In this document: one piece after another, positions 11,221 through 57,558 of the stretch
Layout of the letters: each line of letters begins with the position of its first letter
Position numbering within the stretch: position 1 is the stretch's first letter
From: Patescibacteria group bacterium
GTDB lineage: Bacteria; Patescibacteriota; Microgenomatia; UBA8517
Length of the DNA: 64,000 bases
Direction: 5' to 3'
Assembly: GCA_022562395.1 (NCBI GenBank)
Contig: JADFPI010000001.1
Span: 1,456 to 65,455 of the forward strand
Notes under the pieces: model-generated
Told to the model about the DNA's origin: nothing
Databases searched by the model: none
What the model saw: only the letters and a program-made list of their open reading frames with translations
Program-made: the position numbers and the translations under genes

Positions 11221-11222
11221 AT

Positions 11223-34638: not shown

Positions 34639-35120
34639 TGTATCAGAGACAAAACGATCAGTTAAAAGAATATCAGGAAACGGTTGTTTCCATAAATAGA
34701 GTTTCCAAAAAGACAAAAGGTGGAAACCGAATGAGGTTTACGGCCTTGGTTGTGGTTGGTGATAAAAAGGGAAAGGTGGGGATTGCTCTTGCTAAGGCAC
34801 CGGACGTTCGTGGGGCAATTACCAAAGCATTCTATACCGCAAAAAGAAAGATGGTCAAAATTTCTCTAAGGGGCGGGACGATTCCATGCTCCGTCACCGA
34901 GAAGTACTCTGCGGCAAGGGTTTTGTTAAAACCCGCTCCTGCCGGAACGGGAATTATCGCAGGGGGCCCGATGCGAGTTGTCTTGGAAGCGGTAGGGGTA
35001 AGAGACGCTGTCGGAAAAATTTTGGGAACTAAAAATAAAATCTCAAATGTTTACGCGACCCTGAACGCTTTAAAGACAATAACCAAAATCGCCGAAAGAA
35101 AGGAAAGAAGGGAGAGATAA
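34638..35120 (+). CDS. rpsE: 30S ribosomal protein S5
   Basis: Family match. It is followed directly by rplO with no rpmD (L30) between them. Confidence 0.95.
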   Translation: MYQRQNDQLKEYQETVVSINRVSKKTKGGNRMRFTALVVVGDKKGKVGIALAKAPDVRGAITKAFYTAKRKMVKISLRGGTIPCSVTEKYSAARVLLKPAPAGTGIIAGGPMRVVLEAVGVRDAVGKILGTKNKISNVYATLNALKTITKIAERKERRER

Positions 35121-43038: not shown

Positions 43039-44706
43039 TTATTCCTCTATCCTCGACCAAAAGATATACACTTCGGATTCGTCGGGGCGCAAAACCCGGC
43101 GAAGGATTTCGACATCTTCTCTGTCTTTTAAATTACTTTCCGTTGCACATCCTTCTGCGTCAACAACCAGTAATCTTTTTACTTCCGGTTTTTCGAAAGC
43201 GTCGCGTGAGGGACAGCGCTGGCCGGTAAAAACGAAATTCTCATGCGTCCAGACCCCCTGTTCTCGCGCAATGGCGTCTTGGTTAAAAATCCTAGGGTCA
43301 CGGCCGGTGAAAAAGGCAATCCAAGGGTAGGGGTCGTCCGGAATATTTGTCAAAATAATTTTGTCATAGTTATCTTGCACCTCATTTAATAAAAGTGCCA
43401 ATTCTTTTGCACCAACATTTCTATAGAGGGGAAGGTGAATCTTGTTGTGGACGAAATACATGTGCAAGAAAAATATTAAGTTAAAAGTTAAAAGTAAAAA
43501 TGCAAAAATCACGACACTTTTTCCTTTTTTAGTTAAGCTGTGAAGAAACCCGATTCCGTAAGCAGCGATAATGCTTATAAATGGGAGCATGAATAAAGCT
43601 CGGTGGAGGTTGGGCGCATCTTCCGTTGTCATGGCAGCAGGAATTGGGGCAAGCAGTAGAAGCAAAAGGGGTAAAGCGCTGTTTTTTCGTTGTGCTATTG
43701 TGACTAATCCTAAGACGAAAAGTAGTGCCCCGACATAGGTCAAAAGCCCCACCCCGACTGTTTGGTAGCGGGTTGGTTTTGGAGTCGTATCTTCTAAGAA
43801 AAAATTGGAGCTGAAATATTTTGCATATTCATTAATAAAATGCCTTGCGTAAACCGAGGGTTTGTTGTGAAACAAGCGGGCGATAAATACTTTGTTTGGC
43901 CCTTCTTCAAAAGGCATTCTTGAAAGTTCATACTGTACGTCTAAATCAGAAAATATTGACACTTGAGAAAAGCGACCCCGGGCCTCTTTGTTTTGAATAA
44001 AGAGAAGAGTAATTATAAATAGTACTCCGAGTACTCCCAAAATGACTTTCTTAATTTTTGTTTTTGAAATTATTTTCCATGAATAGAGAATTATTGCCGC
44101 TATAAAGATTGGAGCTAGCACTCTTACCGTGTGATAAAAGAAATAACTTGTGGCTACAAGCGCTATTGAAGCTAGAGCATGTTTTAGTTTCTGCTCATTT
44201 AGTAATCTCAAAAAAAAGTAAAGCCCAAAAAGTGCCAGAAAAAGTGCAACTACTACTTCGCTCGTTGCCCGACTGACGGAAATGTGCCAGGGAGAAACAG
44301 CCAGTAGCGCGCCTGCTGTAACGGCTAATGGCCAATGGTTAATGTTTGACTTTTTCTTTTTAGCTAACTCCTTAACAAAAAGATAAAGGGGAATGACAGT
44401 CAGGGCTCCGAAAAGGGCAGATGGGAAACGGACGGCGAACTCGTTAGTTCCAAAAACGGCAATCGAGGGAATAGTTAAATAAAAAATTCCAGTTGGCCGG
44501 AAGTCCCCGAAGGTGTTGTAGTAAAGAGCAAATTTATTTCCGCGGTCGTCCTTTCCAGTTTTCAAAATCGAGTATGCATTCCAGCCCACCCTAACTTCGT
44601 CTGCATGAAAGCCAAAAGGAAAGGTTGAGAGGCGATAGGTTCTTAGAAAAAAGGCAAGAAGAAAAACCAGCAAAAGAATTTTTACCTGACGACTAAGCTT
44701 AAACAT
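43039..44706 (-). CDS. GT39/GT83-type (PMT/ArnT-family) integral-membrane glycosyltransferase
   Basis: About 12 TM helices, a first-loop DE motif in FHADEVRVGWNAYSIL, and a C-terminal soluble domain. Confidence 0.75.
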   Translation of the reverse strand: MFKLSRQVKILLLVFLLAFFLRTYRLSTFPFGFHADEVRVGWNAYSILKTGKDDRGNKFALYYNTFGDFRPTGIFYLTIPSIAVFGTNEFAVRFPSALFGALTVIPLYLFVKELAKKKKSNINHWPLAVTAGALLAVSPWHISVSRATSEVVVALFLALFGLYFFLRLLNEQKLKHALASIALVATSYFFYHTVRVLAPIFIAAIILYSWKIISKTKIKKVILGVLGVLFIITLLFIQNKEARGRFSQVSIFSDLDVQYELSRMPFEEGPNKVFIARLFHNKPSVYARHFINEYAKYFSSNFFLEDTTPKPTRYQTVGVGLLTYVGALLFVLGLVTIAQRKNSALPLLLLLLAPIPAAMTTEDAPNLHRALFMLPFISIIAAYGIGFLHSLTKKGKSVVIFAFLLLTFNLIFFLHMYFVHNKIHLPLYRNVGAKELALLLNEVQDNYDKIILTNIPDDPYPWIAFFTGRDPRIFNQDAIAREQGVWTHENFVFTGQRCPSRDAFEKPEVKRLLVVDAEGCATESNLKDREDVEILRRVLRPDESEVYIFWSRIEE

Positions 44707-44749
44707 TTGTCTAGGCCATTTTAATCTATTGAAAAAGTTTTTACACCTT

Positions 44750-44778
44750 TTTGACGATAAGTCTTCTGGGTGCGATAC
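44750..44778 (+). promoter_or_regulatory. Promoter TTGACG-N17-GATACT for the dockerin-enzyme operon
   Basis: -35 at 44750-44755 and -10 at 44773-44778. The GTG start of the first gene lies 11 nt downstream. Confidence 0.45.
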
Positions 44779-44788
44779 TTAAGATAAA

Positions 44789-46498
44789 GTGAGAAAGATA
44801 GCTTTACTTTTCTTCTTGACTGGCGTTTTTGCTATTGGCGCCCTACGTGCCGAGGTGGTTTATGGCGCGGGAAAGGGCTCTTTGACCAACCTTGGAGGGA
44901 TGTGGGGTTGGACTGGGACGAACGAGGCGTTTGTACCGCAGCTAGTTATGTACGCTGACGTGCCGCGTTACTACAATAATCCTGGAAAGATTGATGCAGA
45001 TATTCAGACATTCATCAAAGGACACGGCTTCAGTGGTTTCCATGTAGGAGTCGCTTGCCGCTGGTTTGATTTGAATGAGAAGGATTGTCGCAATATTTCA
45101 GGAAGTAACCCCTTGCCAGACCAGAGGACAATTGATGCCTTAAAAATGCTTATTCAAAAAACTCATGCGGCTGGTGGTATGGTCCACATTTGGATGTGGG
45201 GGGACGCAGAACGCGGGCAAAATCCTTCAGTCAGAAGCGATTGGGGCGGTCTTATGGGGAGTGTTGACAAGCGCCTTCAGGACAAAATTGCCCAGGAATT
45301 GGGGTCGCTGGACGGTTGGAGCATGGGCTACGGGTTTGACCTTGATGAATGGGTAGGGGCAAGTAAGTTAAAGCAGTGGCGGGATTATCTCCAAGGGAGA
45401 CTTCCGAAGTTTCATTTTCTCGGCGGTCGACCGGCAGGACCTAATTCTGGCACAAACCACTCGGCTTTTGTTTCTTGGAATAAGCCGATGGACTACTCAA
45501 GTTACGAACATCACCGACCAACTTACAACGTCTATGTCGCCGCGCTTAGCGCGGTCTCCGGACAGCCGGTGATGTCCGAAGATCGCTTCCGCGTCCGTAG
45601 TGGCGGTCGTTCTAAAGACTACAATTTGGACGATACACGACGAGGCCTTTGGACTTCTACACTGGCGGGGGGAGTTGCAAACATCTGGGGGTACCTGAAA
45701 GACGGCGGCTCCCATGATGCCGGCTCGGCGCCTTATCCAAATAAAAACCAGATCAAAACTTATTCGCGCTTTTTTGAGGACAGGTTTAAAAAAGATATGA
45801 GTAGGTGTGGCAGTTTAACAAGTGGAGGTGCAAGGTGTTTGAAACGTTCAAATAACCGGGATTATGTTTTTTATAGAGAGAGTACTTCGTCCATCCAGAT
45901 GGATTTATCGGGAATGAGCGGTTCACAACCTGCCGTAGCCGTTGATACTAAAAAGACATATGGCGAGATTGACCTAGGTGCATTACAAGCAAAAAACCAG
46001 ACCTGGAATGCGCCGTATTCTTCCGACTGGGCCATTGCAGTCGGAAGTTTTGGTGGTGTCGTTCCTCCACCCTCGCTCACGCCTACTCCGACCGGGCAAG
46101 TTTCACCAACTCCTCCTTCTGATGGTTGGATTTTCTGTGTAAATGAACACGGATTCTGCTCATTCTCCGGAACCAAAGAGGTTAGGTACGGTGCTAACGG
46201 TTTCTATCGCTATCTAGTTTTGTCAAACGGTACCGACTGCACTAATGCGGTTTTTGGCGATCCAATTAAGGGAGTATTTAAGCAATGCCACTACAGGGAT
46301 GTTACTACCGTTTCGCCTTCTCCTATACCTAAACAAGGGGATATTGATAATGATGGAGATGTTGATATATTCGATTACAATATCCTTATTGAAAACTTTG
46401 GCAGCACTAATTGCGGTAATGTAGCCGACATTAACGGAGACTGTAAAGTAGATATTTTTGACTACAACATATTAGTTGAAAACTTCGGTGCGACTTAG
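44789..46498 (+). CDS. secreted protein with a C-terminal dockerin-like module (N-terminal putative glycoside-hydrolase-like domain + Cys-rich beta domain)
   Basis: Signal peptide MRKIALLFFLTGVFAIGALRA. The C-terminus is GDIDNDGDVDIFDYNILIENFG...CGNVADINGDCKVDIFDYNILVENFG, two EF-hand-like Ca loops. Confidence 0.75.
   Translation: MRKIALLFFLTGVFAIGALRAEVVYGAGKGSLTNLGGMWGWTGTNEAFVPQLVMYADVPRYYNNPGKIDADIQTFIKGHGFSGFHVGVACRWFDLNEKDCRNISGSNPLPDQRTIDALKMLIQKTHAAGGMVHIWMWGDAERGQNPSVRSDWGGLMGSVDKRLQDKIAQELGSLDGWSMGYGFDLDEWVGASKLKQWRDYLQGRLPKFHFLGGRPAGPNSGTNHSAFVSWNKPMDYSSYEHHRPTYNVYVAALSAVSGQPVMSEDRFRVRSGGRSKDYNLDDTRRGLWTSTLAGGVANIWGYLKDGGSHDAGSAPYPNKNQIKTYSRFFEDRFKKDMSRCGSLTSGGARCLKRSNNRDYVFYRESTSSIQMDLSGMSGSQPAVAVDTKKTYGEIDLGALQAKNQTWNAPYSSDWAIAVGSFGGVVPPPSLTPTPTGQVSPTPPSDGWIFCVNEHGFCSFSGTKEVRYGANGFYRYLVLSNGTDCTNAVFGDPIKGVFKQCHYRDVTTVSPSPIPKQGDIDNDGDVDIFDYNILIENFGSTNCGNVADINGDCKVDIFDYNILVENFGAT
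46334..46495 (+). repeat. dockerin-like module 1 (approximate bounds)
   Basis: DxDxDGDVDIFDYNxLxENFG x2 with a CGN...GxC pair. Confidence 0.75.
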
Positions 46499-46535
46499 AG
46501 ATGAAATCTTTTAAATTTGCTACCATGTAGGTGGC

Positions 46536-48023
46536 ATGAAGAGGTATTTGTTTTTCTTTCCCCTTCCATTTTTTTTGCTTGCATTTGCTTCTTATGTTCA
46601 GGCGCAGACGATTTGCAAGGTTGGCAATGCGACGGGGAATGATACTGCCAAAATTCAGGCTGCAATTAACTCCTGTGCTGGGGGTGGTGAGGTAAAGTTA
46701 AGTTCGGGCAAAACTTATACTGCGGGGACAATTGTGCTTAAAAGCGGCGTTACGCTGAATTTAAACGGCGCGATACTTGAAACCAGTGCAAAGGAAAGTG
46801 ATTTTCAAAGCATTAGTAACGATACGACCCGGATTACATTTGTGGGAGCTGATAAGGGTACCGCCAATGTGGTCATCGTGGGGCCAGGGATGATAAAAAA
46901 ATCATCCCAATCGGATTTCGAGATTGCCTTTTTGCGTTTTGTGGGAAATACCAATCTCACGTTGAAAAATTTTGAAGTGAACTCTTTATCCGCGCCTCCA
47001 ACCGCGGGGGGATTTCACATTACGCTTGATGATAGCGACGGCGTATTGCTCGATGAGATTACTGTACGAGGCAGGCGAGGAGGGGGACAGGTGTGGGGAA
47101 ATGATGGCATTGATGTTCGCTCTCGCAATGTCACAATTAGGAATTGTGATGTGAATACGCACGATGACGGGATTGTAATTGCAACCCCAGAGAAGTACCC
47201 GAAAGGTGTAAGTAACGTTACGGTGGAAAATTGCCGTGTCTCAAGCGATTCTTCCGCTCTTAAGTTTGGGACCGGCACCCACCATGATATTAACAATGTC
47301 ACATTTGACAAGATAACGATTTACGATGGAGCGGGGATCCGTTTTTCCGTATATGATGGTGCAGAATTGAGTAATGTAATATTTTCGAATATTACATACG
47401 AATCGAATATGAATTATCTTTTTGCGTGTGGCGGGGGCGCGAGTGGCCTCGGAATCATGAAAGATTGCGCAGGCCCTGTTGATCGTGACGGCGATGGTAT
47501 TAAAGAGACAGCCGGAGGGTATATTCGTGACATTGTGTTTGAAGATTTTGACATTTTTGATATAGGTAGCAGGAATGCTCACGGTGAGGCATCGCTTAAT
47601 ACTATGGACCGCGTGACGTTTAAAAATATCCGTTTTCATTCCGGATCCGGTTCTCCGCCTCTCGCTCGCTTTCGAAATATCTGTGGGTTGTCCATTTCGA
47701 ATATTACTTACCCCCACCCTACGATTGCCAATCCGCAAAATGATCTGAATATAGAAGTAAGCGTTACGAACGTCCGCTATGACGGCGGTGCCCCCGTCTG
47801 CGGTGGTGCTCTGCCCACTTCGACTTCTACGCCCACAAAAGAGCCGTCTCCGATGCCAACCGGTGGAGATTTAGACTCCGACGGTGATGTAGATATTTTT
47901 GATTACAACGCTCTAGTTGAGAATTTTGGAGCTAGTGTCTGCGGGAATATCGCCGACATTGACGGGAACTGTAAAGTAGATATTTTTGACTACAATATTC
48001 TGGTAGAGAATTTCGGGCGATAA
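46536..48023 (+). CDS. secreted right-handed beta-helix glycoside hydrolase/lyase (GH28-like motifs) with a C-terminal dockerin-like module
   Basis: Signal peptide; GNDGIDVRSRNVTIRNCDVNTHDDGIVIA resembles the GH28 NTDG/DD motifs; ST-rich linker; dockerin. Confidence 0.7.
   Translation: MKRYLFFFPLPFFLLAFASYVQAQTICKVGNATGNDTAKIQAAINSCAGGGEVKLSSGKTYTAGTIVLKSGVTLNLNGAILETSAKESDFQSISNDTTRITFVGADKGTANVVIVGPGMIKKSSQSDFEIAFLRFVGNTNLTLKNFEVNSLSAPPTAGGFHITLDDSDGVLLDEITVRGRRGGGQVWGNDGIDVRSRNVTIRNCDVNTHDDGIVIATPEKYPKGVSNVTVENCRVSSDSSALKFGTGTHHDINNVTFDKITIYDGAGIRFSVYDGAELSNVIFSNITYESNMNYLFACGGGASGLGIMKDCAGPVDRDGDGIKETAGGYIRDIVFEDFDIFDIGSRNAHGEASLNTMDRVTFKNIRFHSGSGSPPLARFRNICGLSISNITYPHPTIANPQNDLNIEVSVTNVRYDGGAPVCGGALPTSTSTPTKEPSPMPTGGDLDSDGDVDIFDYNALVENFGASVCGNIADIDGNCKVDIFDYNILVENFGR
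47862..48020 (+). repeat. dockerin-like module 2 (approx.)
   Basis: GGDLDSDGDVDIFDYNALVENFGASVCGNIADIDGNCKVDIFDYNILVENFG. Confidence 0.75.
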
Positions 48024-48053
48024 TTAATTACTCTCACATTTTCTTCTGATAGA

Positions 48054-49508
48054 ATGGGTTCAGTGCCTATTAACCTCAAACCCTTCTTTATTATTGTTAT
48101 TGGTGGCCTGCTATTTATATTCATTTCTTTATTTAAAACTTATAGCTTTACTTATGCAGCTACCCCGGAGCTTAAATGGAGCGAAGGTTTTGAAGGAAGC
48201 AAGACCGGGGGTACTCATAGTAGCGGTTGTGGAAATCAAGAATATATTAAAGGGAACCCCGGACTGGCTCATTCTGGTGGGGGAGTTCACATGTCCGAAG
48301 CTACTCAAGATCCGTGTAGTTCCGCGATTCGCTATTACCCAACTTGGGATGGCAACATCCCGCTTCCAGTTCTGGTGATGTTTTGGATGAAAACAGATGT
48401 TCCGGGTTACCCGGGAATATCAAAAACCCAAGCTTATAAAATCATTGGTGGGGATAGATTCAGCCCTTTGACGGTTAAAGAGCGGACCGATAAGGGGAAA
48501 AGTTATCAGTGCGTCGCCAGTGTTTGCAATGGTGGCTTTCGTGCAGGTAAATCTTGCTCAAAAAATGGTGAATGTCCCAATAATGCCCTTCTAATGACTA
48601 CTCACATTCGCAGTGATGGGACCTTTGATATTGGCCACGTTCTAATGACCTTCCGCTCCACCAGTATCAAAGCTCCAATTAATGAGTGGTTTTTGCACAG
48701 TGCCTATATTGAAAATGTTGGTAGTGGTTCAAACTTAAAAACTTGGGTGACTATTTATATGAATGAAAAGGAAGTCTCCCGTGGTTACACTTACGAAACA
48801 GAAAATAAACCTTGGACCGGAGCAGCCAAGCATTGGCACATGGGTTGGTATGGTGACCGAAATGGCAATAGTGGACCTTTTAAAATCTACAACGACGATA
48901 TGAAATTTTACGATGTATCGAGCCAGAATGAGGCTGAATCGATTATTGCCAATGAGATTGGTGGAAGCCCGCCGCCGACCTCGCCACCCGGTACGCCAAC
49001 GCCGACGAAAAAACCGACATCTACTCCAGGTGTACCAACGCCTACTCCAACAACTCCGTCCGACCCAAGTGCTAAGTTTAAGATTGGTGATCGAGTCGAA
49101 ACAACGGAAACGGCCAATGTCAGAGAAAGTCCAGGAGAAGGATTAATTGGTACTCAACCTCCTGGTGTTTCCGGAACAGTCGTTGGTGGTCCAGGATTGG
49201 GTGTAGGAGGTGATCATTGGTGGTGGGTGATTGACTACGACACAGGGACTGACGGCTGGAGCCGAGAAGACCTGCTCAAAAAAATAGCGTCAGCTCCATC
49301 TCCTACACTAACTTCAACGCGGACGCCTACACCTTCCCCGAGTATTCCCGGAGATTTGGATAACGACAACGATGTAGATATTTTCGACTACAATACACTT
49401 TTAGAGAATTTTGGAAATACAAACTGCGGAAATGTAGCCGACATCGACGGAAATTGCAAAGTAGATATCTTTGACTACAATATCCTTTTGGAGAACTTTG
49501 GTTTATGA
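48054..49508 (+). CDS. secreted jelly-roll (ConA-like) domain protein + SH3b-like domain + C-terminal dockerin-like module
   Basis: Signal-anchor; PT-rich linkers; SH3b-like KFKIGDRVETTETANVRESPGEGLIGTQPPGVSGTVVGGP...WWWVIDYDTGTDGWSREDLL; dockerin. Confidence 0.7.
   Translation: MGSVPINLKPFFIIVIGGLLFIFISLFKTYSFTYAATPELKWSEGFEGSKTGGTHSSGCGNQEYIKGNPGLAHSGGGVHMSEATQDPCSSAIRYYPTWDGNIPLPVLVMFWMKTDVPGYPGISKTQAYKIIGGDRFSPLTVKERTDKGKSYQCVASVCNGGFRAGKSCSKNGECPNNALLMTTHIRSDGTFDIGHVLMTFRSTSIKAPINEWFLHSAYIENVGSGSNLKTWVTIYMNEKEVSRGYTYETENKPWTGAAKHWHMGWYGDRNGNSGPFKIYNDDMKFYDVSSQNEAESIIANEIGGSPPPTSPPGTPTPTKKPTSTPGVPTPTPTTPSDPSAKFKIGDRVETTETANVRESPGEGLIGTQPPGVSGTVVGGPGLGVGGDHWWWVIDYDTGTDGWSREDLLKKIASAPSPTLTSTRTPTPSPSIPGDLDNDNDVDIFDYNTLLENFGNTNCGNVADIDGNCKVDIFDYNILLENFGL
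49350..49505 (+). repeat. dockerin-like module 3 (approx.)
   Basis: PGDLDNDNDVDIFDYNTLLENFGNTNCGNVADIDGNCKVDIFDYNILLENFG. Confidence 0.75.
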
Positions 49509-50887
49509 CAAAAGTACGTTTACTATTGGCAGTTTTGGCTTTTCTAACCAGTGCTTTTATTAGTCTCTCTGCTCCGGCAGGATCGTTAGCCGCAAAACTT
49601 ATTTTCAATAGCGGTTTTGAAGCGGATTCTCAGATTACAGGGGGATACGCGGATATATCAGGCACAGATCGTTCTGTTTCGTCTCCCAATAATTGGGATA
49701 ATGCCTGGGATTTTCATTTCAATTACAACGGGGGTAACGGTAGCACAAGGAAGGCTGAGATCGTAGACGATCCAGCAGGAGGGAATAACAAAGTACTTCG
49801 TTTATGGTTGAGGGATGCATATGGTGGCTCGGTACGCTCAACTTCGCGAATCCGACGGCTAGGCAGGACGGAGTGGTTCAGCCGAAGGAGAGTCTATGTA
49901 GACCCGGATTTCTTGTTACTCTCGAATTATACAGGATCCTCAAGGGTCATGTTTGAGGAGATCAAAGTTACACAAACCAAGACGAGTCCAAGCTTTCGCA
50001 TTACCGCGGCCTGGGGTGATATAGCCCGAGGGGTGTCTTGGGATATTGAGGCCGAAGACTTGAGAGCTTCTGGTCCAGCATTTTGGACTTGTACGTCAAG
50101 AACTAGCGTTCCAATCGGCGAGTGGTTTACGCTTGAGACATATTACAGGGCGGGAGACGCGAAAAACGGCCGCTATGTCCTTACCTTCCAAAGGGACGGC
50201 GGGTCTAAACAGACGATTTGTGACGTAACCAACTGGACGTATCATCCCGACATGGGGCCATCCTCTCCATGGACCTACAATCCCATGAAACTCTATATGT
50301 CTCGAGGAGATGACGTGGATTGGATTCGAAACAACGGCGGGGTAGCGCAACTCTATTTTGACGACTGGGAGGTGTGGTCTACAATGCCGGATGGAGAAAT
50401 CCCACCTTTAACTTCAACTTTAAAACCGACCCCTACTATTAGTAAGATCCCCGGAGGAAAATTTAAAGTAGGCGATCGGGTGGAAGTGACTGTTACAGCC
50501 AATGTGAAGTTGACCGCAGGACAAGGATTAAGAGGTACTCAGCCTCCGGGTGCAAGGGGAACCGTCCTTGGCGGACCCGAGATTGGGATAGGAGGTCAGA
50601 ATTGGTGGTGGGAGATTGATTATGATTCTTGGCCTGATGGTTGGAGCCGAGAAGATTTACTTGAAAAGGTTGGTGGTCCAACCTCAACGCCGACACCAAC
50701 TCCTGCAAAAGTTCCAGTTCCTGGCGATATAGATGGCGATGGTGATGTTGATATTTTTGACTACAACATTCTTGTCGCAGAGTTTGGAAGTACAGATTGC
50801 GGCAGAGTGGCAGATATTAATGGCGATTGTAAAGTTGATATTTTTGACTACAATTCTCTGGTTGAAAATTTTGGGAGAACAGTATGA
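49505..50887 (+). CDS. secreted polysaccharide-lyase/glycanase-like jelly-roll protein (PL7-like YYRAG motif) + SH3b-like domain + dockerin-like module
   Basis: Signal peptide. RTEWFSRRRVY and YYRAGDAKNGRYVLTFQ resemble the PL7 RxELR / YFKAG motifs (weak). SH3b-like KFKVGDRVEVTVTANVKLTAGQGLRG...; dockerin. Confidence 0.65.
   Translation: MTKVRLLLAVLAFLTSAFISLSAPAGSLAAKLIFNSGFEADSQITGGYADISGTDRSVSSPNNWDNAWDFHFNYNGGNGSTRKAEIVDDPAGGNNKVLRLWLRDAYGGSVRSTSRIRRLGRTEWFSRRRVYVDPDFLLLSNYTGSSRVMFEEIKVTQTKTSPSFRITAAWGDIARGVSWDIEAEDLRASGPAFWTCTSRTSVPIGEWFTLETYYRAGDAKNGRYVLTFQRDGGSKQTICDVTNWTYHPDMGPSSPWTYNPMKLYMSRGDDVDWIRNNGGVAQLYFDDWEVWSTMPDGEIPPLTSTLKPTPTISKIPGGKFKVGDRVEVTVTANVKLTAGQGLRGTQPPGARGTVLGGPEIGIGGQNWWWEIDYDSWPDGWSREDLLEKVGGPTSTPTPTPAKVPVPGDIDGDGDVDIFDYNILVAEFGSTDCGRVADINGDCKVDIFDYNSLVENFGRTV
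50723..50884 (+). repeat. dockerin-like module 4 (approx.)
   Basis: PGDIDGDGDVDIFDYNILVAEFGSTDCGRVADINGDCKVDIFDYNSLVENFG. Confidence 0.75.
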
Positions 50888-52357
50888 GGAAACTTTTTTT
50901 CGCCTCCTTCTTAACTATATTTATCCTTGCACTTCACTTAAATAAAGTAGACGCACAGACTGTATGTAATGTCGGCAGTGCGACTGGCAATGATACCCAA
51001 AAAATTCAAAATGCTATTGATTCCTGTGCTGGGGGTGGCGAGGCAAAGTTAAGTTCGGGCGAGACTTATACTGCGGGGACAATTGTGCTTAAAAGTGGAG
51101 TAACGCTCAATTTAAATAGCTCAACCATTCAGGCCTCTGATAACGAGAATGACTTTATTTCTTGTAAAGAGGGAAGCACTCGAAATTTTTTCATATGCAC
51201 GAGGGCCAAAACGGACAGTGTGGTCATTACTGGACCGGGGGCTTTAACTAAGACTCCGGGGAGCAAGGTTGACCATTCAATGGTGGAATTTTGGAACTCG
51301 AGCAACTTAACCGTAAGGAACTTAACTATTGATACTACCATGGCAGACAAAACGGTTAGTGGTTTTCACCTGAACACCGCTGCCAGCAATAATATTTTGT
51401 TTGAGAGCATTACTGTGCGCGGTGGTCGGGCAGGAGGACAGGTATGGGGCAACGATGGTATCCACCTCCAGGGTTCACAGAACGTTACTGTCAGAAATTG
51501 CGATATTAGTACCCACGATGACGGAATTCCTATCCCCGCTTCATCAGGTGAAGGGGCGCGGAACGTGTTAGTTGAGGATTGTGTTGTATCAAGCGACTCT
51601 AGCGCACTTAAGTTCGGTACGGGCTCCAGTGATAAATGGGACGGTATAACATTCAGGAACATAACGATAAAGAACACTAACGTTGCAATTGGCTTTGCTG
51701 TTTATGATGGAGGTGAGGTAAGCAATGTAATCTACGACAATATAACTGTTGAGTCAGATGTAAAAGTATTGTTTGCCTGCGGCGGCGGCGCTGCAGGCTT
51801 AGGTGGCATGAAAGACTGTGCCGGGCCGGTGGATAGGGACGGAGACGGAGTTAAAGAGACTCCCGGGGGATATATTCATGATGTAACTTTTCAAAACTTC
51901 GAAATCTTCGGCGGCGGCAGTTCGACATCGCACGGTGAAGCTTCGCTAAATACAATGGATAGAGTGACTTTGAAAAATATTAATTTCCACGAAGGTTCTG
52001 GAACGGCCCCGCTGGCATGGTTCAGGGATATATGTGGGCTTTCAATTTCTGGTTTCACCTCGCACTTAACAGGCGACCCGACTAAGGATATGCAAATTGA
52101 TTCGAAGTGTTACCAATTTAAGGCTGGATGGCGGTACGCCAAACTGTGGGGGTGCCGGTTCTACTCCCACTCCTACTTCCAAACCTCCTCTTACAGGAGA
52201 TTTAGACGGCGATAACGATGTTGATATTTTTGACTACAATATCCTTGTTACAAATTTCGGACAGGCTGGGGAAAACCTAGCAGACATTGATGGTAACGGC
52301 GATGTAGATGTCTTTGACTACAACATACTTCTTGAGAATTTTGGTAAGATACCGTAG
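50884..52357 (+). pseudogene. second GH28-like beta-helix + dockerin gene, split by a +1 frameshift near 52104-52110 (track ORFs 50884..52215 and 52097..52357)
   Basis: Paralog of 46536..48023. Frame 1 ends DMQIDSKCYQ.... Frame 2 continues SVTNLRLDGGTPNCGG...dockerin, matching the paralog's SVTNVRYDGGAPVCGG. This is a real pseudogene or a homopolymer error. Confidence 0.6.
52199..52354 (+). repeat. dockerin-like module 5 (lacks the Cys pair: QAGENLADIDGNGDVDVFDYNILLENFG)
   Basis: GDLDGDNDVDIFDYNILVTNFG...ADIDGNGDVDVFDYNILLENFG. Confidence 0.7.
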
Positions 52358-52464
52358 AACGGTTTGTCCATCAGGAATCATCCTCTTGCCACAAAATACT
52401 TTTCCATCATTCGTTTATCTTGAGAAAGAGGTGTTTAAGAGTGTAGAGTCTAAGAGAGGGCAAA

Positions 52465-54480
52465 ATGAAATTTAGCCGTAATTTACTTCCTTTTTTTCTT
52501 GCCGTCTTTTTCCTATCGAGCCTCTTTCCTTTTAGAGCACTAGCCCAGACCGGAGGAGTAGGAGCTGATGGCAAAACCTTTGAAGAGCGCAAAAAAGACT
52601 GGCTTAACTTTGTTCCACAGCCAAGCTCTGAGATGGACATGACGACGCGTCGACGCTACCTTTTTAGTTGGCTAGAGAAGGGTATATATAACAATGTTGT
52701 TTCCGAGTCAATTCAAGACTTTGTCGGTGGTTATTGGCTGGGTGGTATCAGGGCCCAGGGTGGATATGCGGTTATGATATTAAAAAAATATGGCCAGAAG
52801 GGTTCAGGGCTAATTAGCTCAAATGACGAGAGCAAAATCAAGAACAGGTATAGGCGCTCGATAGAAAACAGCGGTTTTTTCGGACATCTCAATCCAAACA
52901 AGCAGGTATATGCAATGGTTGGGACATATCTTTATACACATTACTACGAGAATAGCTTGCAGTTTCCAGTTTACGGTTACCCCACGTCCCAAGACCCAAG
53001 CAATTTACCCTCCTACTACCAAGATCAGTGGCCGACCTTTTCCTATGGCGGGCGTACCTACAAGTTCGGAAGCGGACCATACAATGCCCAGCAACTTTCA
53101 AGGGACTGGTTGCTGTGGGCTTTTGATAAATGGTATGTTGGCAAATCTCCTTCTAAGGGGCCTCGTGAGTTTGATTCCATCGACTATGCTCGAGCCTTTC
53201 CTGGCGCGACTGCTTTGCTTTGGAGTCTTGCACCCAACTCTGACCAAGCAATTAAGACTCGTGCCAAGATGGCGACGGACCTGCTTCTTCTTGACTCGGT
53301 TCTCGATTTCTCGGCCAATTCATGGGGTGGAACTATGAGCCGCGCAGATTACTACTGGATGGGTCGCTCTCCAATTTTTCCAATGCACATCTATTGGGGA
53401 ATGGGAGAAGACACCGACAGGTTTGACGTGCGTGTTCTCTACCAGGTTGGGTATGTCCCTCCTGATGTAATAATTGACGCTGGGGTTCTAACCGACGAGG
53501 CTGATAACTATTGGTACTGGCACACAGAACATCAGGCTAATGGGTTACTTAATCAGTGGGAGTTTGGCAAATGGAACTTTGTTACCAAAAATTACAATAT
53601 TGGCTCGAATGTAGGATGGGGAAAGAGGGGTTGGCAGGTTAATGTAAAAGGTCCTGGAAGAAAAGCGTTTATCAGATTATGGGTTAATCAGGATGACACA
53701 GAGCCTGTGTCAACCAGCGAAGGCAGCCATATGGGCAACAAAGGGAGGCAGTTTCGTAATGCAATTTTTGCAGATGTTGGCTCTCAACCCTTTTTGTGGG
53801 AAAAAAGAGTTAAGACTGATTGGGACAAAGATGAAATTGATAGCGGGATACAATGCTCAAATGTCGCCTCAAGCACCTGGCGCTGTAGCGGTAGCGGATG
53901 GATTTTTAGAAAGAAAGATAAATCCATGGTGGCCATTTCTCTTGGCGCAAAAACCGCCTCAGCCGAGGTGGCAACAGAAGGTGTAGAGTATTCTAATTGG
54001 AATGCTTTCAAAGGCGCAGTAAGGGCAAACGCTTCTTTAACAACAGGCTCTTACACGACATCTCAAGGTTCAACTATTGGTAAAGAGGACTATTGTGGCC
54101 TAAATGCACCCGGAGATTGCCAGTTTCCCTTTGAGCGAATGAACACACAAGACTTTCGAGGAAATAAGATTGTTGAATGGCTCGCTGGTGACAAAATGAG
54201 AGTTTCTCTTCGTGGTAAAACTTGCACTTACGACTTTAGTAAATGGACTTATTCAGGAAGCTGTGGGGAGAAAGTCCCTGGCCCAACAGATACTCCAACT
54301 CCTACGCCATCCAAAGTAGAAGGCGACCTTGATGGTGACGGTGATGTTGATATTTTTGATTACAACTTTTTGATTGAGAACTTTGGCGATGCTAAGTGTG
54401 GTAATGAAGCAGATATAGACGGAAATTGCAAGGTAGACATATTTGATTACAATATTCTGGTAGAGAATTTCGGTAAATGA
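52465..54480 (+). CDS. secreted protein of unknown function (about 600-aa N-terminal domain) with a C-terminal dockerin-like module
   Basis: Signal peptide, PT linker and dockerin EGDLDGDGDVDIFDYNFLIENFGDAKCGNEADIDGNCKVDIFDYNILVENFG. Confidence 0.7.
   Translation: MKFSRNLLPFFLAVFFLSSLFPFRALAQTGGVGADGKTFEERKKDWLNFVPQPSSEMDMTTRRRYLFSWLEKGIYNNVVSESIQDFVGGYWLGGIRAQGGYAVMILKKYGQKGSGLISSNDESKIKNRYRRSIENSGFFGHLNPNKQVYAMVGTYLYTHYYENSLQFPVYGYPTSQDPSNLPSYYQDQWPTFSYGGRTYKFGSGPYNAQQLSRDWLLWAFDKWYVGKSPSKGPREFDSIDYARAFPGATALLWSLAPNSDQAIKTRAKMATDLLLLDSVLDFSANSWGGTMSRADYYWMGRSPIFPMHIYWGMGEDTDRFDVRVLYQVGYVPPDVIIDAGVLTDEADNYWYWHTEHQANGLLNQWEFGKWNFVTKNYNIGSNVGWGKRGWQVNVKGPGRKAFIRLWVNQDDTEPVSTSEGSHMGNKGRQFRNAIFADVGSQPFLWEKRVKTDWDKDEIDSGIQCSNVASSTWRCSGSGWIFRKKDKSMVAISLGAKTASAEVATEGVEYSNWNAFKGAVRANASLTTGSYTTSQGSTIGKEDYCGLNAPGDCQFPFERMNTQDFRGNKIVEWLAGDKMRVSLRGKTCTYDFSKWTYSGSCGEKVPGPTDTPTPTPSKVEGDLDGDGDVDIFDYNFLIENFGDAKCGNEADIDGNCKVDIFDYNILVENFGK
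54322..54477 (+). repeat. dockerin-like module 6 (approx.)
   Basis: See the CDS. Confidence 0.75.
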
Positions 54481-54560
54481 TTATGGCCCTAATTCATAGC
54501 TTGCCCTGAGCTTGTCGAAGGGTTGAAAACTTTGGTAAAAATTAGCCGTTACTTTAACAG

Positions 54561-54592
54561 TTGACAAAACTAGCGCTTTTCATGACTATAAA
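54561..54592 (+). promoter_or_regulatory. Candidate promoter (TTGACA ... CTATAAAT) for the cohesin operon
   Basis: TTGACA at 54561-54566. The -10 is either GACTAT with a 17-nt spacer or TATAAA with a 20-nt spacer. Confidence 0.35.
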
Positions 54593-54634
54593 TACAGTTA
54601 TCTTATTTGGATTTGCAGTCTTAAAGATATTCGT

Positions 54635-54676
54635 ACCCGCCTGCAAAAGCTATCGCTTAAGCGATTGCGGGCAGGT
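54635..54676. promoter_or_regulatory. Nested inverted repeat with a perfect 14-bp palindrome ATCGCTTAAGCGAT (operator-like) upstream of the cohesin operon
   Basis: Palindrome at 54652-54665, flanked by imperfect arms ACCCGCCTGCAA / TTGCGGGCAGGT. Confidence 0.5.
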
Positions 54677-54776
54677 ATACCCAAAATGTTATTTTTAAAA
54701 CTGTAAACTAAAGTATTTTGAGTATATAGGGGTTGAGGAGACCTCAAATTTCGCATACAATTAAAAAGGACGATTA

Positions 54777-55991
54777 ATGCCAGACACAAGTTCAAATTCG
54801 GGGGAGGGTTTATCAAGATTGCTTTCTAGTAAAAAAGACTTATCCCCATTGGTTTTGGTTTTTATTCTTCTTCTCGGTATAGTAGTCGGAGTTTTTTTGA
54901 TTCAGTTCAGGCAAGAGCTTCGAAGGCGCGCAGCGGTAGCCGGAGTGGATTTCTCGCTTGTTCCCAGTAAAACCACCGTTTCTCCAAATGAGAAGTTTAC
55001 GGTAGATATTGTGATGAATACTAACGAATTTAGCGTCTCGGCTACAGAAATCCACGTTGCCTTTGACGCAAATTATCTTGAGGCTGAAAGTATTCAAGAA
55101 AGCGGCTTTTTGCCGGTTGTTTTGCCGCCTGGGCCACAAGTTGGCAGTGGTACGGCCTCAATTATTTTAGGAAGCTTGCCTTCTGACCCAAAGAAGGGAA
55201 CTGGTACGGTAGCCACGATTAATTTCAAGGCGCTTAAAGCATCAGGTGGGCCAACCGAGATTCGCTTTGATTCAGGCACTCAAACTGCCGCACTTGGAAA
55301 TGCCGGGGATGTAACCAGAAATCTCAGCCCAACCAGCGTAACTGTTCAAGGTGTGGTTGCTCCAACTCCGACGAAAACGCCAACGCCGACAAAGAAACCA
55401 ACAGCAACTCCTACGTCCAAACCTGCGCCGACTTCTACTCCCACTCCCAAAGCAACGGCTACTCCAACTCCTTTGCCAACTCCGACTCCTCTACCGAGCC
55501 CAACACCGGGTAAAGCAAACCTTGAGTTTAAAGTGAAATTCCAGGGAATTTCCTCTCAAAAATCGGCTAGGCTAGTAAGAGTGATGTTAATGCAAGGGGG
55601 AAGTGAAGTGTATAGGTTTGACGACGTTAGTGTAACCGCTGACCAATCTGGAGTTTACCTGGGTTCAGTTGGAAATATCACGCCAGGTACATACGACGTT
55701 TATATTAAAGGCCCGATTCATCTGCAAAAGAGATTTACCAGTATTTCCATCTCATCGGGTTCAAATAGCCAAGATTGGTCTGGAGTGACTCTTAAAGCGG
55801 GCGACTTTGACGCCAATAACGTTTTGAACATTATCGACATTGCGGGCATGTTGGCGGAGTACACTGCACTTTCTGTCCCTGCCAATCAGTCAAATCAAAA
55901 GTTCGACATCGACGCAAATGGTGTTATAAATATTATTGACGTAGCTTTGGTTTTGACAAACTATACAGCGTTGGAGGTACCAGGAGACTAA
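54777..55991 (+). CDS. membrane-anchored adaptor scaffoldin-like protein: N-terminal TM, cohesin-like domain, PT linker, beta-sandwich domain, C-terminal dockerin of a second sequence type
   Basis: TM LVLVFILLLGIVVGVFLI. Cohesin-like FSLVPSKTTVSPNEKFTVDIVMNTNEFSVSATEIHVAFDANYLE...GTVATINFKALKASGGPTEIRFD. (TPTP)n linker. Dockerin DFDANNVLNIIDIAGML...DIDANGVINIIDVALVLTNY. Confidence 0.7.
   Translation: MPDTSSNSGEGLSRLLSSKKDLSPLVLVFILLLGIVVGVFLIQFRQELRRRAAVAGVDFSLVPSKTTVSPNEKFTVDIVMNTNEFSVSATEIHVAFDANYLEAESIQESGFLPVVLPPGPQVGSGTASIILGSLPSDPKKGTGTVATINFKALKASGGPTEIRFDSGTQTAALGNAGDVTRNLSPTSVTVQGVVAPTPTKTPTPTKKPTATPTSKPAPTSTPTPKATATPTPLPTPTPLPSPTPGKANLEFKVKFQGISSQKSARLVRVMLMQGGSEVYRFDDVSVTADQSGVYLGSVGNITPGTYDVYIKGPIHLQKRFTSISISSGSNSQDWSGVTLKAGDFDANNVLNIIDIAGMLAEYTALSVPANQSNQKFDIDANGVINIIDVALVLTNYTALEVPGD
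54939..55347 (+). repeat. cohesin-like domain 1 (approx.)
   Basis: See the CDS. Confidence 0.6.
55800..55988 (+). repeat. type-2 dockerin-like module (DxDANxVxNIIDxAxxL x2)
   Basis: Its sequence differs from the six enzyme dockerins. Confidence 0.65.
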
Positions 55992-56597
55992 ATGAAAAAC
56001 CTGTCCCAAAAAAATAGGTTGCTGCTTGCTTTCGTAATTGGAGGTGTAGGGATATTAATTGGAGTTTCCTTGGGCAATTATTTTGTAAAGGGAAGAGGCC
56101 CGAGTCCAACGCCCGAGGTTACAACAGCGCCTTCAAAAAGTAGGGCAACCCTTTCTTTCTATCCCGAGGAAACAGAGGTTGACGTGGGTGATGAATTTAG
56201 CGTTGAGATTAGGCTAAATGCTGAAGGCTTAGTTCTTTCCGGATTAGCGGTAAGGATGGTTTACGAATACGAGGGCGATTTGCCGCTTGAGCCCCAGGAT
56301 GTAAAGATGAGAGTCAATCCAGCGCTAGCTGGAATGGATTGGGTGTTTCCAGTAAATACGATAGAGGTTGATGAGAGGAACAAAAGAGTCGTCGCAGAGC
56401 TGGCCGCAGTCAATTTAAACCCCGGAGGATATCCGGCCGAAGGCTCAGTCACTTTTGCGACTATTGATTTTAATGCTGAAAGCTCAAGCAGTAACGACTT
56501 GGCCTTTACTTTTGACGCTGAAAACACGAAATTACTTACCAAAGATGGACGAGAGGTGGAGATAGAACTAGTCGAGAGGCTGTACAGCGTAGATTAA
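55992..56597 (+). CDS. membrane-anchored cohesin-like domain protein (201 aa)
   Basis: N-terminal TM LLLAFVIGGVGILIGVSL. Cohesin-like LSFYPEETEVDVGDEFSVEIRLNAEGLVLSGLAVRMVYEYEGDL...GSVTFATIDFNAESS. Its start abuts the stop of the previous gene. Confidence 0.65.
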   Translation: MKNLSQKNRLLLAFVIGGVGILIGVSLGNYFVKGRGPSPTPEVTTAPSKSRATLSFYPEETEVDVGDEFSVEIRLNAEGLVLSGLAVRMVYEYEGDLPLEPQDVKMRVNPALAGMDWVFPVNTIEVDERNKRVVAELAAVNLNPGGYPAEGSVTFATIDFNAESSSSNDLAFTFDAENTKLLTKDGREVEIELVERLYSVD

Positions 56598-56646
56598 AAT
56601 TACGCAGTTGACGGGTCGCAACATTCGTCTCTATGATTAAAATACT

Positions 56647-57558
56647 ATGGCAGTAAAACCAACCGTTAAAACAATTCTTGCAATTTTGGTAATTTTAGTG
56701 CTGGTAATAAGCATTCCAGTTGCCGTGTTTTTGATAAGACAGCGGCAGGAGATTAGGGAGAAAGCTGCAGTTCCCACTGGACAGGCAACCGTATCCCTAT
56801 CACCGACGAGTGCAACTTACGATGTTGGGCAGTCGTTTAGTGTTAGCGTTTCTTTTAATACGGCAAATATAGCGATATCAGCAGTCGCGGTCAGGCTAAC
56901 TTATCCCTACTCTGGAACAACACCGGAACTTACAGCCTCCGATATTCAAATAAATCCGTCACTATTGGCGACAGGAAGCTGGAGCTGTCCGGTTAAAACG
57001 ATTACCCCTTCAAGCGGAACGGTTCAAATAGATATAGCCTGTGTAAACACCGATATTAATGGATATACCTCGGCAACCGATACACAACTGGCGTCATTTA
57101 GCGTGGTTGCCAACCAAGTTCCAGCAACCAACCCAACCACTTTGAGGTTCGACCCGAATTTGAGTGTTATTACCCAAAAATCAGACGGGCAAGACGTCCT
57201 TTTGATTCCCACAAGCACTGGTTCTTATACAATTTCCGGAGGTGCAGGTCCAACTCCAACCCCAACTCCAACTCCAACGCCCACCCCGACAAGTGGTATA
57301 GGCGGTGGGGCAACCGCAACTCCAACCCCCACTCTCACAGAAGACGAGCAAGATTTGACACCAACCCCCACTCCTAGCCCAACCCCTACGGGAGGCACTG
57401 GCGGTGGGGCAACCGCAACACCAACCCCCACTCCGACAGAAATTGAGGAGCTTCTAGACTCGGGGGTATCAACGCCTACTTTACTGGCCGCATTTGTAGG
57501 ATTTTTGCTGCTTCTTGTTAGCGCTGGAACCTTCTCAGTGGTATTTTTGAGAAAGTAG
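56647..57558 (+). CDS. cohesin-like domain protein with an N-terminal TM, a (PTPT)n linker and a C-terminal hydrophobic anchor
   Basis: TM ILAILVILVLVISIPVAVFLI. Cohesin-like VSLSPTSATYDVGQSFSVSVSFNTANIAISAVAVRLTYPY...TQLASFSVVANQV. GPTPTPTPTPTPTPTSG linkers. C-terminal LLAAFVGFLLLLVSAGTFSVVFLRK. Confidence 0.65.
   Translation: MAVKPTVKTILAILVILVLVISIPVAVFLIRQRQEIREKAAVPTGQATVSLSPTSATYDVGQSFSVSVSFNTANIAISAVAVRLTYPYSGTTPELTASDIQINPSLLATGSWSCPVKTITPSSGTVQIDIACVNTDINGYTSATDTQLASFSVVANQVPATNPTTLRFDPNLSVITQKSDGQDVLLIPTSTGSYTISGGAGPTPTPTPTPTPTPTSGIGGGATATPTPTLTEDEQDLTPTPTPSPTPTGGTGGGATATPTPTPTEIEELLDSGVSTPTLLAAFVGFLLLLVSAGTFSVVFLRK

Follow-up and report, generated by a model that had tools for sequence, protein, structure and literature searches.

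In the cellulosome of Clostridium (Acetivibrio) thermocellum, a cellulolytic Firmicute, dockerins come in two classes, one of the enzyme type and one that is preceded by an X-module and carried on a cohesin protein. The latter class is found at the C-terminus of CipA, which is bound to the anchoring scaffoldins SdbA, OlpB and Orf2p (3kcp, 4fl4, 2b59) and in which a cohesin, a linker, an X-module and a dockerin follow one another. Here we describe a cluster of nine genes in a 64,000-nucleotide stretch of DNA from a bacterium of the Patescibacteria, or candidate phyla radiation (CPR); this whole stretch is referred to as the window. Six cargo genes that encode dockerin modules (g1 to g6) are followed in it by three genes for cohesin proteins (c1 to c3). 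Both dockerin classes of C. thermocellum have counterparts in the cluster, the cohesin-linker-X-dockerin order of CipA recurs in c1, and PT-rich linkers and duplicated F-hand dockerins are common to the two systems. However, CipA has nine cohesins and a carbohydrate-binding module (CBM) of the CBM3 type, against a single cohesin and the lack of a CBM in c1; the anchors of C. thermocellum rely on SLH domains, whereas those of the window have transmembrane (TM) helices or a tail that resembles a sorting signal; and the host of the window is not a cellulolytic Firmicute but a CPR bacterium with a genome of about 1 Mb, whose cargo is free of cellulases.

Ruminococcus flavefaciens offers two further likenesses. 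Its ScaE is a monovalent cohesin protein attached to the cell through a C-terminal LPXTG-type signal, a kind of tail also seen in relatives of c3, and its ScaC is an adaptor with one cohesin and a dockerin, the combination found in c1. R. flavefaciens differs from the window in that its dockerin proteins number in the hundreds and that its ScaA and ScaB are multi-cohesin proteins; c3 itself has a degenerate motif, and the sequence similarity is remote (E 0.09-0.4 for a c2/c3 profile against 5aoz and 5m2o). Few or single cohesins combined with non-cellulase cargo are also known from the amylosome of Ruminococcus bromii (PMC4611034), ClcC/ClcD of Cellulosilyticum lentocellum (PMC13487519), the glycoside hydrolase and toxin pairs of C. 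perfringens (2vo8, 2jh2) and the cohesin of Archaeoglobus fulgidus (2xdh). In these systems a cohesin-dockerin pair assembles or tethers enzymes outside the cell, and the predicted structures of c1 and c2 superpose on cohesins of such minimal or non-cellulosomal systems with TM-scores of 0.66-0.83. What sets the window apart from the minimal systems is that six cargo and three scaffoldin genes are contiguous and syntenic in CPR, that the dockerins are of two tiers, and that the cohesin proteins share a conserved N-terminal motif, TM-Q[ED][IL]Rx[KR]A.

A dockerin-bearing envelope protein has been reported from one cultivated CPR bacterium, the Saccharibacterium Southlakia epibionticum, in which the dockerin-domain protein SEML1_0315 is essential and has been proposed by its describers to target host glycans (Wang et al. 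2023, PMC10633639). The likeness to the cluster is one of description, and the paper names neither a cohesin partner nor an operon. Non-cellulosomal cohesins and dockerins have long been established in all three domains of life (PMC4611034 and PMC13487519, among others), and NCBI already labels some homologues of the window proteins 'cohesin domain-containing protein [Candidatus Gottesmanbacteria]'. A full-text literature search returned no account of cohesin-dockerin operons or of a two-tier system in CPR, although such absence is not proof. The novelty is thus that of a cohesin-dockerin operon in a lineage for which we found no description of one, and not that of a categorically new kind of system. 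Our reading, to which we assign a probability of about 0.72, is that the cluster encodes a cohesin-dockerin cell-surface display system of a Patescibacteria bacterium.

Dockerin, cohesin and cargo modules

The nine genes are tightly packed on the plus strand between 44789 and 57558, with intergenic gaps, from g1 to c3, of 37, 30, -4, -4, 107, 296, 0 and 49 nt. Their features are as follows (aa, amino acids; features of c1 marked AF2 are taken from an AlphaFold2 model).

g1, 44789-46498, plus strand: signal peptide, cargo domain of ~430 aa, Cys-rich module of ~60 aa, PS linker, dockerin (about 46334-46498)
g2, 46536-48023, plus strand: signal peptide, GH28-like right-handed beta-helix, PT linker, dockerin (about 47862-48023)
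g3, 48054-49508, plus strand: signal peptide or anchor, domain of ~300 aa, SH3b-like module (about 49071-49286), PT linker, dockerin (about 49347-49508)
g4, 49505-50887, plus strand: signal peptide, rare-family domain of ~300 aa, SH3b-like module (about 50456-50671), PT linker, dockerin (about 50717-50887)
g5, 50884-52357, plus strand: GH28-like paralogue of g2 (57% aa identity), frameshifted; first open reading frame (ORF) 50884-52215, dockerin ORF 52097-52357
g6, 52465-54480, plus strand: signal peptide, extracellular domain of ~590 aa, PT linker, dockerin (about 54319-54480)
c1, 54777-55991, plus strand: candidate adaptor scaffoldin, with the next five features
c1, aa 24-50: N-terminal TM helix with QELRRRA motif (AF2)
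c1, aa 57-190, 54945-55346: cohesin
c1, aa 194-245: disordered PT linker (AF2)
c1, aa 247-339, 55515-55793: X-like beta-sandwich
c1, aa 341-398, 55797-55970: type-II-like dockerin with loops DFDANNVLNIID and DIDANGVINIID
c2, 55992-56597, plus strand: short anchor with N-terminal TM helix (aa 6-32), short linker and single cohesin (aa 52-200, 56145-56591)
c3, 56647-57558, plus strand: candidate cell-anchored scaffoldin with N-terminal TM or signal segment with RQEIREKA, cohesin (aa ~46-199, 56782-57243)
c3, 57259-57441: duplicated PT/G-rich linker
c3, 57448-57555: sorting-signal-like tail, LLDSG...TM...RK

The proteins of g1 to g6 begin with a Sec-type signal peptide and end in a PT/ST linker followed by a 52-aa dockerin. 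The cluster had been described, from the sequence alone and before any database search, as six consecutive secreted proteins tagged with dockerins; five of these are intact, with signal peptides and PT/ST linkers, whereas in g5 the dockerin is out of frame. At the nucleotide level a 73-nt unit occurs 12 times, two per gene in six genes, at a spacing of 87 nt (29 aa) or, in g5, 84 nt. The corresponding peptide motif, D.[DN].[DN]G.[VI][DN][IVL].D, is confined to the cluster in the six-frame translation of the 64-kb window. A hidden Markov model (HMM) built from the dockerins matches exactly six ORFs of the window (E 1e-27 to 1e-32; g2, 9e-32), and one built from the cohesins matches exactly three. 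Given that the motif occurs in the cluster only and that the HMMs match exactly these six and three ORFs, the observation is real and far beyond chance. Scans for promoters and terminators yielded nothing informative.

Both halves of each cargo dockerin consist of an F-hand Ca2+ loop of the form D-x-D/N-x-D-G-x-V-D-x-x-D and a helix segment, YNxLxENFG, so that the module is a duplicated segment of ~22 residues with a 12-residue EF/F-hand Ca2+ loop (Asp or Asn at positions 1, 3, 5, 9 and 12) plus helix, as in dockerins. In an alignment of seven sequences 29 of the 52 positions are invariant, and D-x-D-x-D-x-D-V-D-I-F-D and A-D-I-x-G-x-x-x-V-D-x-F-D are retained throughout. Since the cargos are otherwise unrelated and yet keep dockerins that are 65-85% identical, a shared receptor fits the data.

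Comparison with reference families was made at the Pfam gathering thresholds of 22.9 bits for Dockerin_1 (PF00404), 24.1 bits for Cohesin (PF00963) and 22.9 bits for Glyco_hydro_28 (PF00295). The g1 dockerin passes at 23.6 bits (the remaining modules are taken up below), and the NCBIfam model dockerin_GC gives weak matches to the modules. Related dockerin-bearing proteins from other genomes match Dockerin_1 in 26 of 81 cases (E<=1e-3), the best at E 1.8e-9. When the dockerin profile was run against the PDB it retrieved the true dockerins 5lxv_B, 2y3n_B and 8zvk at E 0.004-0.04; the designed pentatricopeptide repeat (PPR) proteins that topped that search were set aside as a repeat artefact caused by 'YNTLISGLGK'. 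As judged from sequence, the modules are genuine dockerins.

A pair of Cys residues (..NCGN..DGxCKVD..) brackets the start of the second Ca2+ loop in the dockerins of g1 to g4 and g6 (for example at 46400-46440) and of a closely related strain (locus L001, below). The g5 dockerin is alone among the six in lacking it, and the pair is missing from the consensus of related dockerins from other genomes. Such a pair might serve as a disulfide staple particular to this lineage.

The three downstream proteins had each been credited with one cohesin-like beta-sandwich. For c1 this is borne out by the Pfam Cohesin model, which matches aa 63-190 at 30.1 bits, and by the AF2 model (predicted local distance difference test score, pLDDT, 75.9; dockerin helices at 352-361 and 386-397), in which the cohesin has TM-scores of 0.73-0.83 to solved cohesins. 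The model of c2 has a pLDDT of 84.6, above 90 over aa 50-200, and the top 26 Foldseek matches to it in the PDB are all cohesins, among them those of OlpA, OlpC, CipA and A. fulgidus (best 6kgf_C, E 3.6e-9, TM-score 0.75). Structure prediction thus agrees with the cohesin assignment, in that both models find cohesins almost exclusively. Single-sequence phmmer searches of the PDB with c2 and c3 gave no useful match, and a joint c2/c3 profile placed the cohesins 5aoz and 5m2o on top at weak E-values of 0.09 and 0.39. A chain of homology, c2 to c3 (BLASTP, 2e-17) and c3 to c1 (2e-7), nonetheless links all three cohesins. The nine-stranded cohesin beta-sandwich is present in the models of c1 and c2 and extends to c3 through this homology, and on sequence and modelling together c1, c2 and c3 are taken to carry genuine cohesins. 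Homologues of c2 are few, with 6 clusters in 5.8 billion proteins.

The linker of c3 is made of two 84-nt tandem units, 80% identical, that encode PTPTP...GGGATATPTPT, so that a spacer lengthened by repetition separates the cohesin from the C-terminal tail.

The sequence-only reading had also proposed a second dockerin type on the first cohesin protein, and this is supported. With phmmer, aa 303-398 of c1 align to the X-module and type II dockerin of CipA (2b59_B, E 4.4e-4; 3kcp and 5g5d, to 3e-3), and the best Foldseek matches to the c1 model are 3kcp_A and 4fl4, the CohI9-X-DocII fragment of CipA (E 6e-16), with 2b59_B at E 1.2e-6. The beta-sandwich of aa 247-339 lies immediately before the c1 dockerin, as in an X-module-dockerin dyad. 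Because c1 matches CohI9-X-DocII of CipA, the analogy with a type I/II hierarchy is supported at the level of architecture. The X-dockerin unit is not exclusively an adaptor tag, since other organisms attach it to enzyme domains as well (GH42, Glyco_hydro_cc, beta-helix). An exact look-up of c1 in a public protein collection gave no match.

Among the cargo domains, those of g2 and g5 had been called GH28-like beta-helices, and they score 35.9 and 39.7 bits, respectively, against Glyco_hydro_28. Both also match Beta_helix and Pect-lyase_RHGA_epim (the latter at 40.7 bits for g2). The NCBIfam polygalacturonase model PglB is matched at E 8e-27 by g2 and at about 1e-27 by g2/g5, far under its equivalog cutoff. 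The motifs GNDGID and THDDGI, with their Asp residues kept, can be read in both proteins, as seen in the sequences themselves and not in an alignment to characterised GH28 enzymes.

For the remaining cargo, family searches returned little. The g1 cargo domain and the N-terminal domain of g3 have no Pfam match at E<=5, and only the dockerin of g1 finds matches in the PDB (5lxv_B, 2y3n_B). Between the g1 cargo domain and its dockerin lies the Cys-rich module (aa ~447-505, window 46120-46330; WIFCVNEHGFCSF...VRYGANG...CTNAVFGDP..G..KQC), for which Pfam gave no match; it may be a small carbohydrate-binding module or a disulfide-rich spacer. The N-terminal domain of g4 is rare, with 11 homologue clusters in 5.8 billion proteins; it has no match in Pfam, nor in the PDB when searched with a 9-sequence profile, and one homologue weakly matches PF14099 (Polysacc_lyase, E 0.019). 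The PL7/ConA-like assignment that had been offered among the N-terminal domains found no Pfam match for the N-domains of g3 and g4 and no PDB match with the g4 profile, the fold not having been modelled. Similarity between g3 and g4 is restricted to the 82 aa of the SH3-like region. That this region is SH3b-like, as had been stated, is weakly supported: g3 matches SH3_3 at E 9.5e-4 and 19.7 bits, under the 27-bit cutoff, and an SH3b profile against the PDB returned noise only (the InlB GW/SH3-like domain at E 0.15).

The cargo family of g6 (window 52465-54297) has 112 representatives at 50% clustering; its profile finds no relative in Pfam or the PDB, and g6 itself matches only dockerins in the PDB. 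Homologues of the domain are fused to dockerin, SLH or type IX secretion system (T9SS) C-terminal sorting domains, which argues that the g6 cargo is an extracellular domain, and we regard it as a possible new family of enzymes or of binding proteins at the cell surface. In related dockerin proteins of other genomes the cargo comprises beta-helix, GH39, GH5, GH28, GH10, GH42, sulfatase and SASA esterase domains, along with CBM4_9, ConA-like, BNR and beta-propeller domains. Given that cargo with the same dockerin is mostly made up of carbohydrate-active enzymes in these relatives, the system would mostly be about glycans.

Anchoring and the proposed display system

The cohesin proteins had been described as three membrane-anchored proteins with one cohesin each. 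The cohesins stand, as do the TM helices in the models of c1 and c2, but in c1 and c3 what is read as an N-terminal TM segment may instead be a signal peptide that is cleaved off. In these two proteins the N-terminal hydrophobic segment is followed by the motif FRQELRRRAAV (c1; region 54840-54935, aa 24-53) or RQRQEIREKAAV (c3; region 56670-56780, aa 10-43). In a set of 5,454 ORFs taken from the window and from 78 loci, the pattern TM-Q[EDQN][ILVN][RT]x[KR][AG] occurs 19 times, in 17 cases in a cohesin protein. The motif Q[ED][ILV]Rx[KR]A[AST] is present in loci L006, L010, L021, L034, L042, L044, L048 and L049 as well, and c2-type proteins are without it. It could be a signal-peptidase or other cleavage site, a sorting signal or a juxtamembrane element.

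At its C-terminus c3 has LLDSG, a hydrophobic stretch of 23 residues and RK, the sole such tail among the window ORFs of at least 150 aa. In c3-like proteins of other genomes the corresponding motif is LPQTG, LPVSG, LPEAG or IPVTG, again followed by a TM segment. In view of this hydrophobic and basic tail, the LPXTG-like tails of the relatives and the presence of a sortase gene at 11223-11930 of the window, it is a reasonable inference, by analogy with ScaE of R. flavefaciens, that c3 is attached by a sortase-type mechanism.

The analysis shows what the modules are and how they fold, the order of the genes, their conservation, the purifying selection on them and their CPR origin; we infer cohesin-dockerin binding, its Ca2+ dependence, the pairing of modules, the mode of anchoring and the nature of the substrate along the following lines. 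The dockerins of the cargo proteins would plug into cell-bound cohesins, the contact being non-covalent and presumably dependent on Ca2+. These cohesins would be held by c2, through its N-terminal TM anchor, and by c3, through a C-terminal sorting-signal/TM anchor that is possibly processed by sortase. In this arrangement c1 would act as an adaptor, its cohesin taking a cargo dockerin and its own X-dockerin plugging into c2 or c3; such an enzyme-adaptor-anchor hierarchy is plausible from the sequences and models. The outcome would be an exchangeable tethering of glycan-active enzymes, together with several domains that have no family assignment, by which an ultra-small cell, lacking an outer membrane, would keep enzymes and their products at its surface.

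The cluster had been called cellulosome-like, which is overstated. Pfam and NCBIfam detected no CBM in the cluster and no cellulase among its cargo, and each scaffoldin has a single cohesin, so that the arrangement corresponds to monovalent surface tethering. For these reasons the attachment machinery is like that of the cellulosome, and yet the system is not a cellulosome.

Conservation, strain variation and competing explanations

Relatives were collected by scanning the dockerin alignment against one genome per GTDB species, which gave 73 loci. The best dockerin relative (82% identity) comes from a groundwater Microgenomates metagenome-assembled genome (MAG), and the nearest relatives generally are MAGs of the Microgenomates group. 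The CPR loci belong to Gottesman-, Woese- (two closed 0.8-Mb genomes), Davies- and Yanofskybacteria and to Paceibacterota; further loci lie in MAGs that are labelled, by their records only, as Gammaproteobacteria, Pseudomonadales, Limisphaerales, Planctomycetota, Poribacteria and Bathyarchaeota. At about 20 of the 73 loci the dockerin genes are directly followed, on the same strand, by cohesin ORFs, and in such loci the first cohesin protein often has a dockerin and the last an LPXTG-like tail. Two diverged loci, L003 (66-73% nt identity) and L050, keep the c1-c2-c3 trio. Ratios of non-synonymous to synonymous substitution (dN/dS) lie in the range 0.07-0.27 when g3, g4, c1 and c3 are compared with L001 and when c1 and c3 are compared with L003; in the comparison of c2 with L003, dS is saturated. 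That synteny is kept in many CPR species and that selection is purifying argue for a functional system.

Several of the loci with labels outside CPR share this gene layout. Locus L050 (JBILGT010000004.1, labelled Limisphaerales) has the full trio of a cohesin-X-dockerin protein, a c2-like and a c3-like protein, and the same order of dockerin and then cohesin genes is seen in L037 and L044 (labelled Pseudomonadales) and in L006, L010, L016 and L023 (labelled Gammaproteobacteria). Either the record labels of these carriers are wrong or the cassette has moved between phyla.

Cargo varies between near-identical strains. In L001, a strain 96-98% identical to that of the window, the order is a DUF4215/Cys-repeat protein with dockerin, then g3, g4, c1, c2 and c3, so that the g2 position holds different cargo. 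The points at which L001 and the window part company lie inside dockerin repeats, namely within the final ~20 nt of the second such repeat in g4 and g6 and in the first repeat of g2 (window 47860-48020, 50860-50880 and 54460-54540 against L001:1830-1975 and L001:4820-4855). The dockerin-coding repeats may therefore be recombination sites that shuffle cargo; assembly chimerism at the repeats is the alternative. The independent assembly L077 has the glycosyltransferase gene upstream of the cluster followed by g1-g2-g3-g4, in the same order and at 99.8% identity.

A number of observations weigh against a functional glycan-directed display system. With the Dockerin_1 model, on which the dockerin reading was to be checked, g1 is the one module to pass: g4 (22.3 bits), g6 (18.5), c1 (17.6-20.8) and g5b (16.4) fall under 22.9 bits, and the dockerins of g2 and g3 are not listed in that search. 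Likewise c1 passes the Cohesin model, whereas c2 and c3 have no Pfam match at all. The window holds one cohesin in each of c1, c2 and c3 and no other cohesin ORF, and LLDSG of c3 is degenerate relative to LPXTG. Four of the six cargo domains are without a family assignment, so that the case for glycan degradation is carried by the two GH28-like proteins and the cargo of other genomes, and in g2 and g5 the GHG and RIK motifs are not evident when the sequences are read. L001 is without g5 and g6, and not all cargo is thus needed. Finally, comparison with the paralogous g2 reveals a one-nucleotide insertion in g5 at about 52102-52106, which places the g5 dockerin in another frame. This frameshift could reflect a true pseudogene, a polymorphism or a mistake in assembly; the truncated g5 product is absent from the public protein collection by exact look-up, and the sole independent contig over the g5 region (L078) starts 6-10 nt past the frameshift site.

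The alternative that we take most seriously, while still thinking it doubtful, keeps the same machinery and changes its purpose: instead of scavenging polysaccharide from the environment, displayed beta-helix depolymerases and the unassigned domains would bind or cut the capsule, exopolysaccharide or cell wall of the host or partner of a presumed episymbiont. Cultivated CPR bacteria are episymbionts, and capsule depolymerases share the beta-helix fold. The variation of cargo between near-identical strains is what would be expected of host-range determinants, and four of the six cargo domains are in no known polysaccharide-degrading family. To this may be added the essential Saccharibacterium dockerin protein with its proposed host glycans (Wang et al. 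2023, PMC10633639). Nothing within the window points to a host, however; the cargo of the relatives includes families directed at plant and algal glycans (GH5, GH10, GH39, GH28), and Pfam and NCBIfam detect no peptidoglycan hydrolase domain in the six cargo proteins. The cohesin-dockerin proteins might instead chain into a surface layer or matrix built onto c2 and c3, with enzyme display secondary. In many loci (L006, L010, L021, L024, L042, L049) the first cohesin protein does have an enzyme-type dockerin, which would allow head-to-tail chains, and long PT linkers are consistent with extended structures. In c1, by contrast, the dockerin is of a different type from that of the cargo, which favours a directed hierarchy, and six cargo genes are co-located with the cohesin genes; we regard the layer as unlikely.

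We give little credence to the view that the neighbouring cohesins are no partners of the dockerin-like modules, which would instead be independent Ca2+-binding stabilising tails or carbohydrate-binding tails, the cohesin-like proteins being unrelated surface proteins. Peer et al. are said to have noted in 2009 that, outside cellulosomes, many of the dockerins and cohesins encoded in genomes lack a demonstrated partner, and the marginal Pfam scores of the dockerins fit such a view. Against it stand the fusion of cohesin, X-module and dockerin, which mirrors a proven adaptor architecture, the 65-85% identity of dockerins across unrelated cargos, and the recurrence, at about 20 of the 73 loci and in several candidate phyla, of dockerin genes directly next to cohesin genes in the same orientation. 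That the cluster is foreign DNA, through mis-assembly, mis-binning or recent transfer from outside CPR, seems very improbable to us. Its GC content (0.45-0.47) is slightly above that of its immediate flanks (0.39-0.43), and dockerins like those of the cluster are found in MAGs labelled Gammaproteobacteria, Limisphaerales, Planctomycetota and Bathyarchaeota. The GC content of the rpoB/rpoC region (0.445-0.454) matches that of the cluster, however, the same contig carries a ribosomal operon without L30, L077 independently joins the glycosyltransferase gene to g1-g4, and the closest relatives are Microgenomates-group MAGs, including the two closed Woesebacteria genomes.

Genomic context and implications for CPR bacteria

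Two further genes of the window were considered in connection with the cluster.

11223-11930, plus strand: sortase (PF04203, E 1.6e-22)
43039-44706, minus strand: PMT_2/GT39-type glycosyltransferase, divergent neighbour of the cluster (PF13231, E 1.4e-11)

Absence of ribosomal protein L30 is a hallmark of CPR. In the window S5 (34638-35120) adjoins L15 (35121-35594) directly, with no L30 gene between them, and S5, L15, L6, L17, L13, SecY, g2 and the glycosyltransferase are identical to proteins in the range MCH7729931-49 of an NCBI MAG named 'Patescibacteria group bacterium'. There g2 is the hypothetical protein MCH7729949.1 and the glycosyltransferase a 'glycosyltransferase family 39 protein'. 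The missing L30 and the exact protein matches establish that the source organism belongs to the Patescibacteria/CPR, in agreement with the CPR-like genome that had been surmised from the DNA. Cumulative GC skew climbs monotonically over the entire window, and almost all genes are on the plus strand.

A GT39/ArnT-family glycosyltransferase had been placed directly upstream of the cluster on the opposite strand, and it is indeed there. A functional link to the cluster, such as O-glycosylation of the PT linkers, was considered and set aside, as synteny does not support it: a homologue of the glycosyltransferase is present at 1 of the 73 loci. Directly upstream of the sortase gene lies a gene for a 747-aa protein (the pair spans window 8977-11930) with a weak Baseplate_J-like match (E 5e-4); it was rejected as a candidate sortase substrate, being without a C-terminal sorting signal.

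A large part of bacterial diversity belongs to the CPR, whose genomes are minimal, and the ways in which these bacteria use their surfaces for feeding or for attachment to hosts are poorly understood. That a conserved cluster of 12.7 kb is kept under purifying selection in a genome of roughly 1 Mb suggests that non-covalent display of enzymes matters to these cells. More tentatively, and with doubts of our own, we raise the idea that these operons, with dockerin cargo genes, a cohesin-dockerin adaptor and TM- or sortase-anchored cohesins, are a conserved and as yet undescribed surface organelle of Microgenomates-group CPR that mediates interaction with the envelope of a host or partner. Its cargo would be reshuffled between strains by recombination between dockerin repeats as in a swappable 'tool-belt', the tools being mostly protein families without an assigned function. 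If strain-level swapping of cargo at these repeats is real, it would be a simple route by which to diversify a surface toolkit.

The three small cohesins, the two dockerin types and the six cargos, four of them without a family, provide handles on the surface biology of uncultivated CPR bacteria, and the cargos are a route to new glycan-active or host-targeting domains. The two-tier logic of an X-dockerin adaptor, so far characterised in cellulolytic Firmicutes, would also be extended to a very distant lineage.

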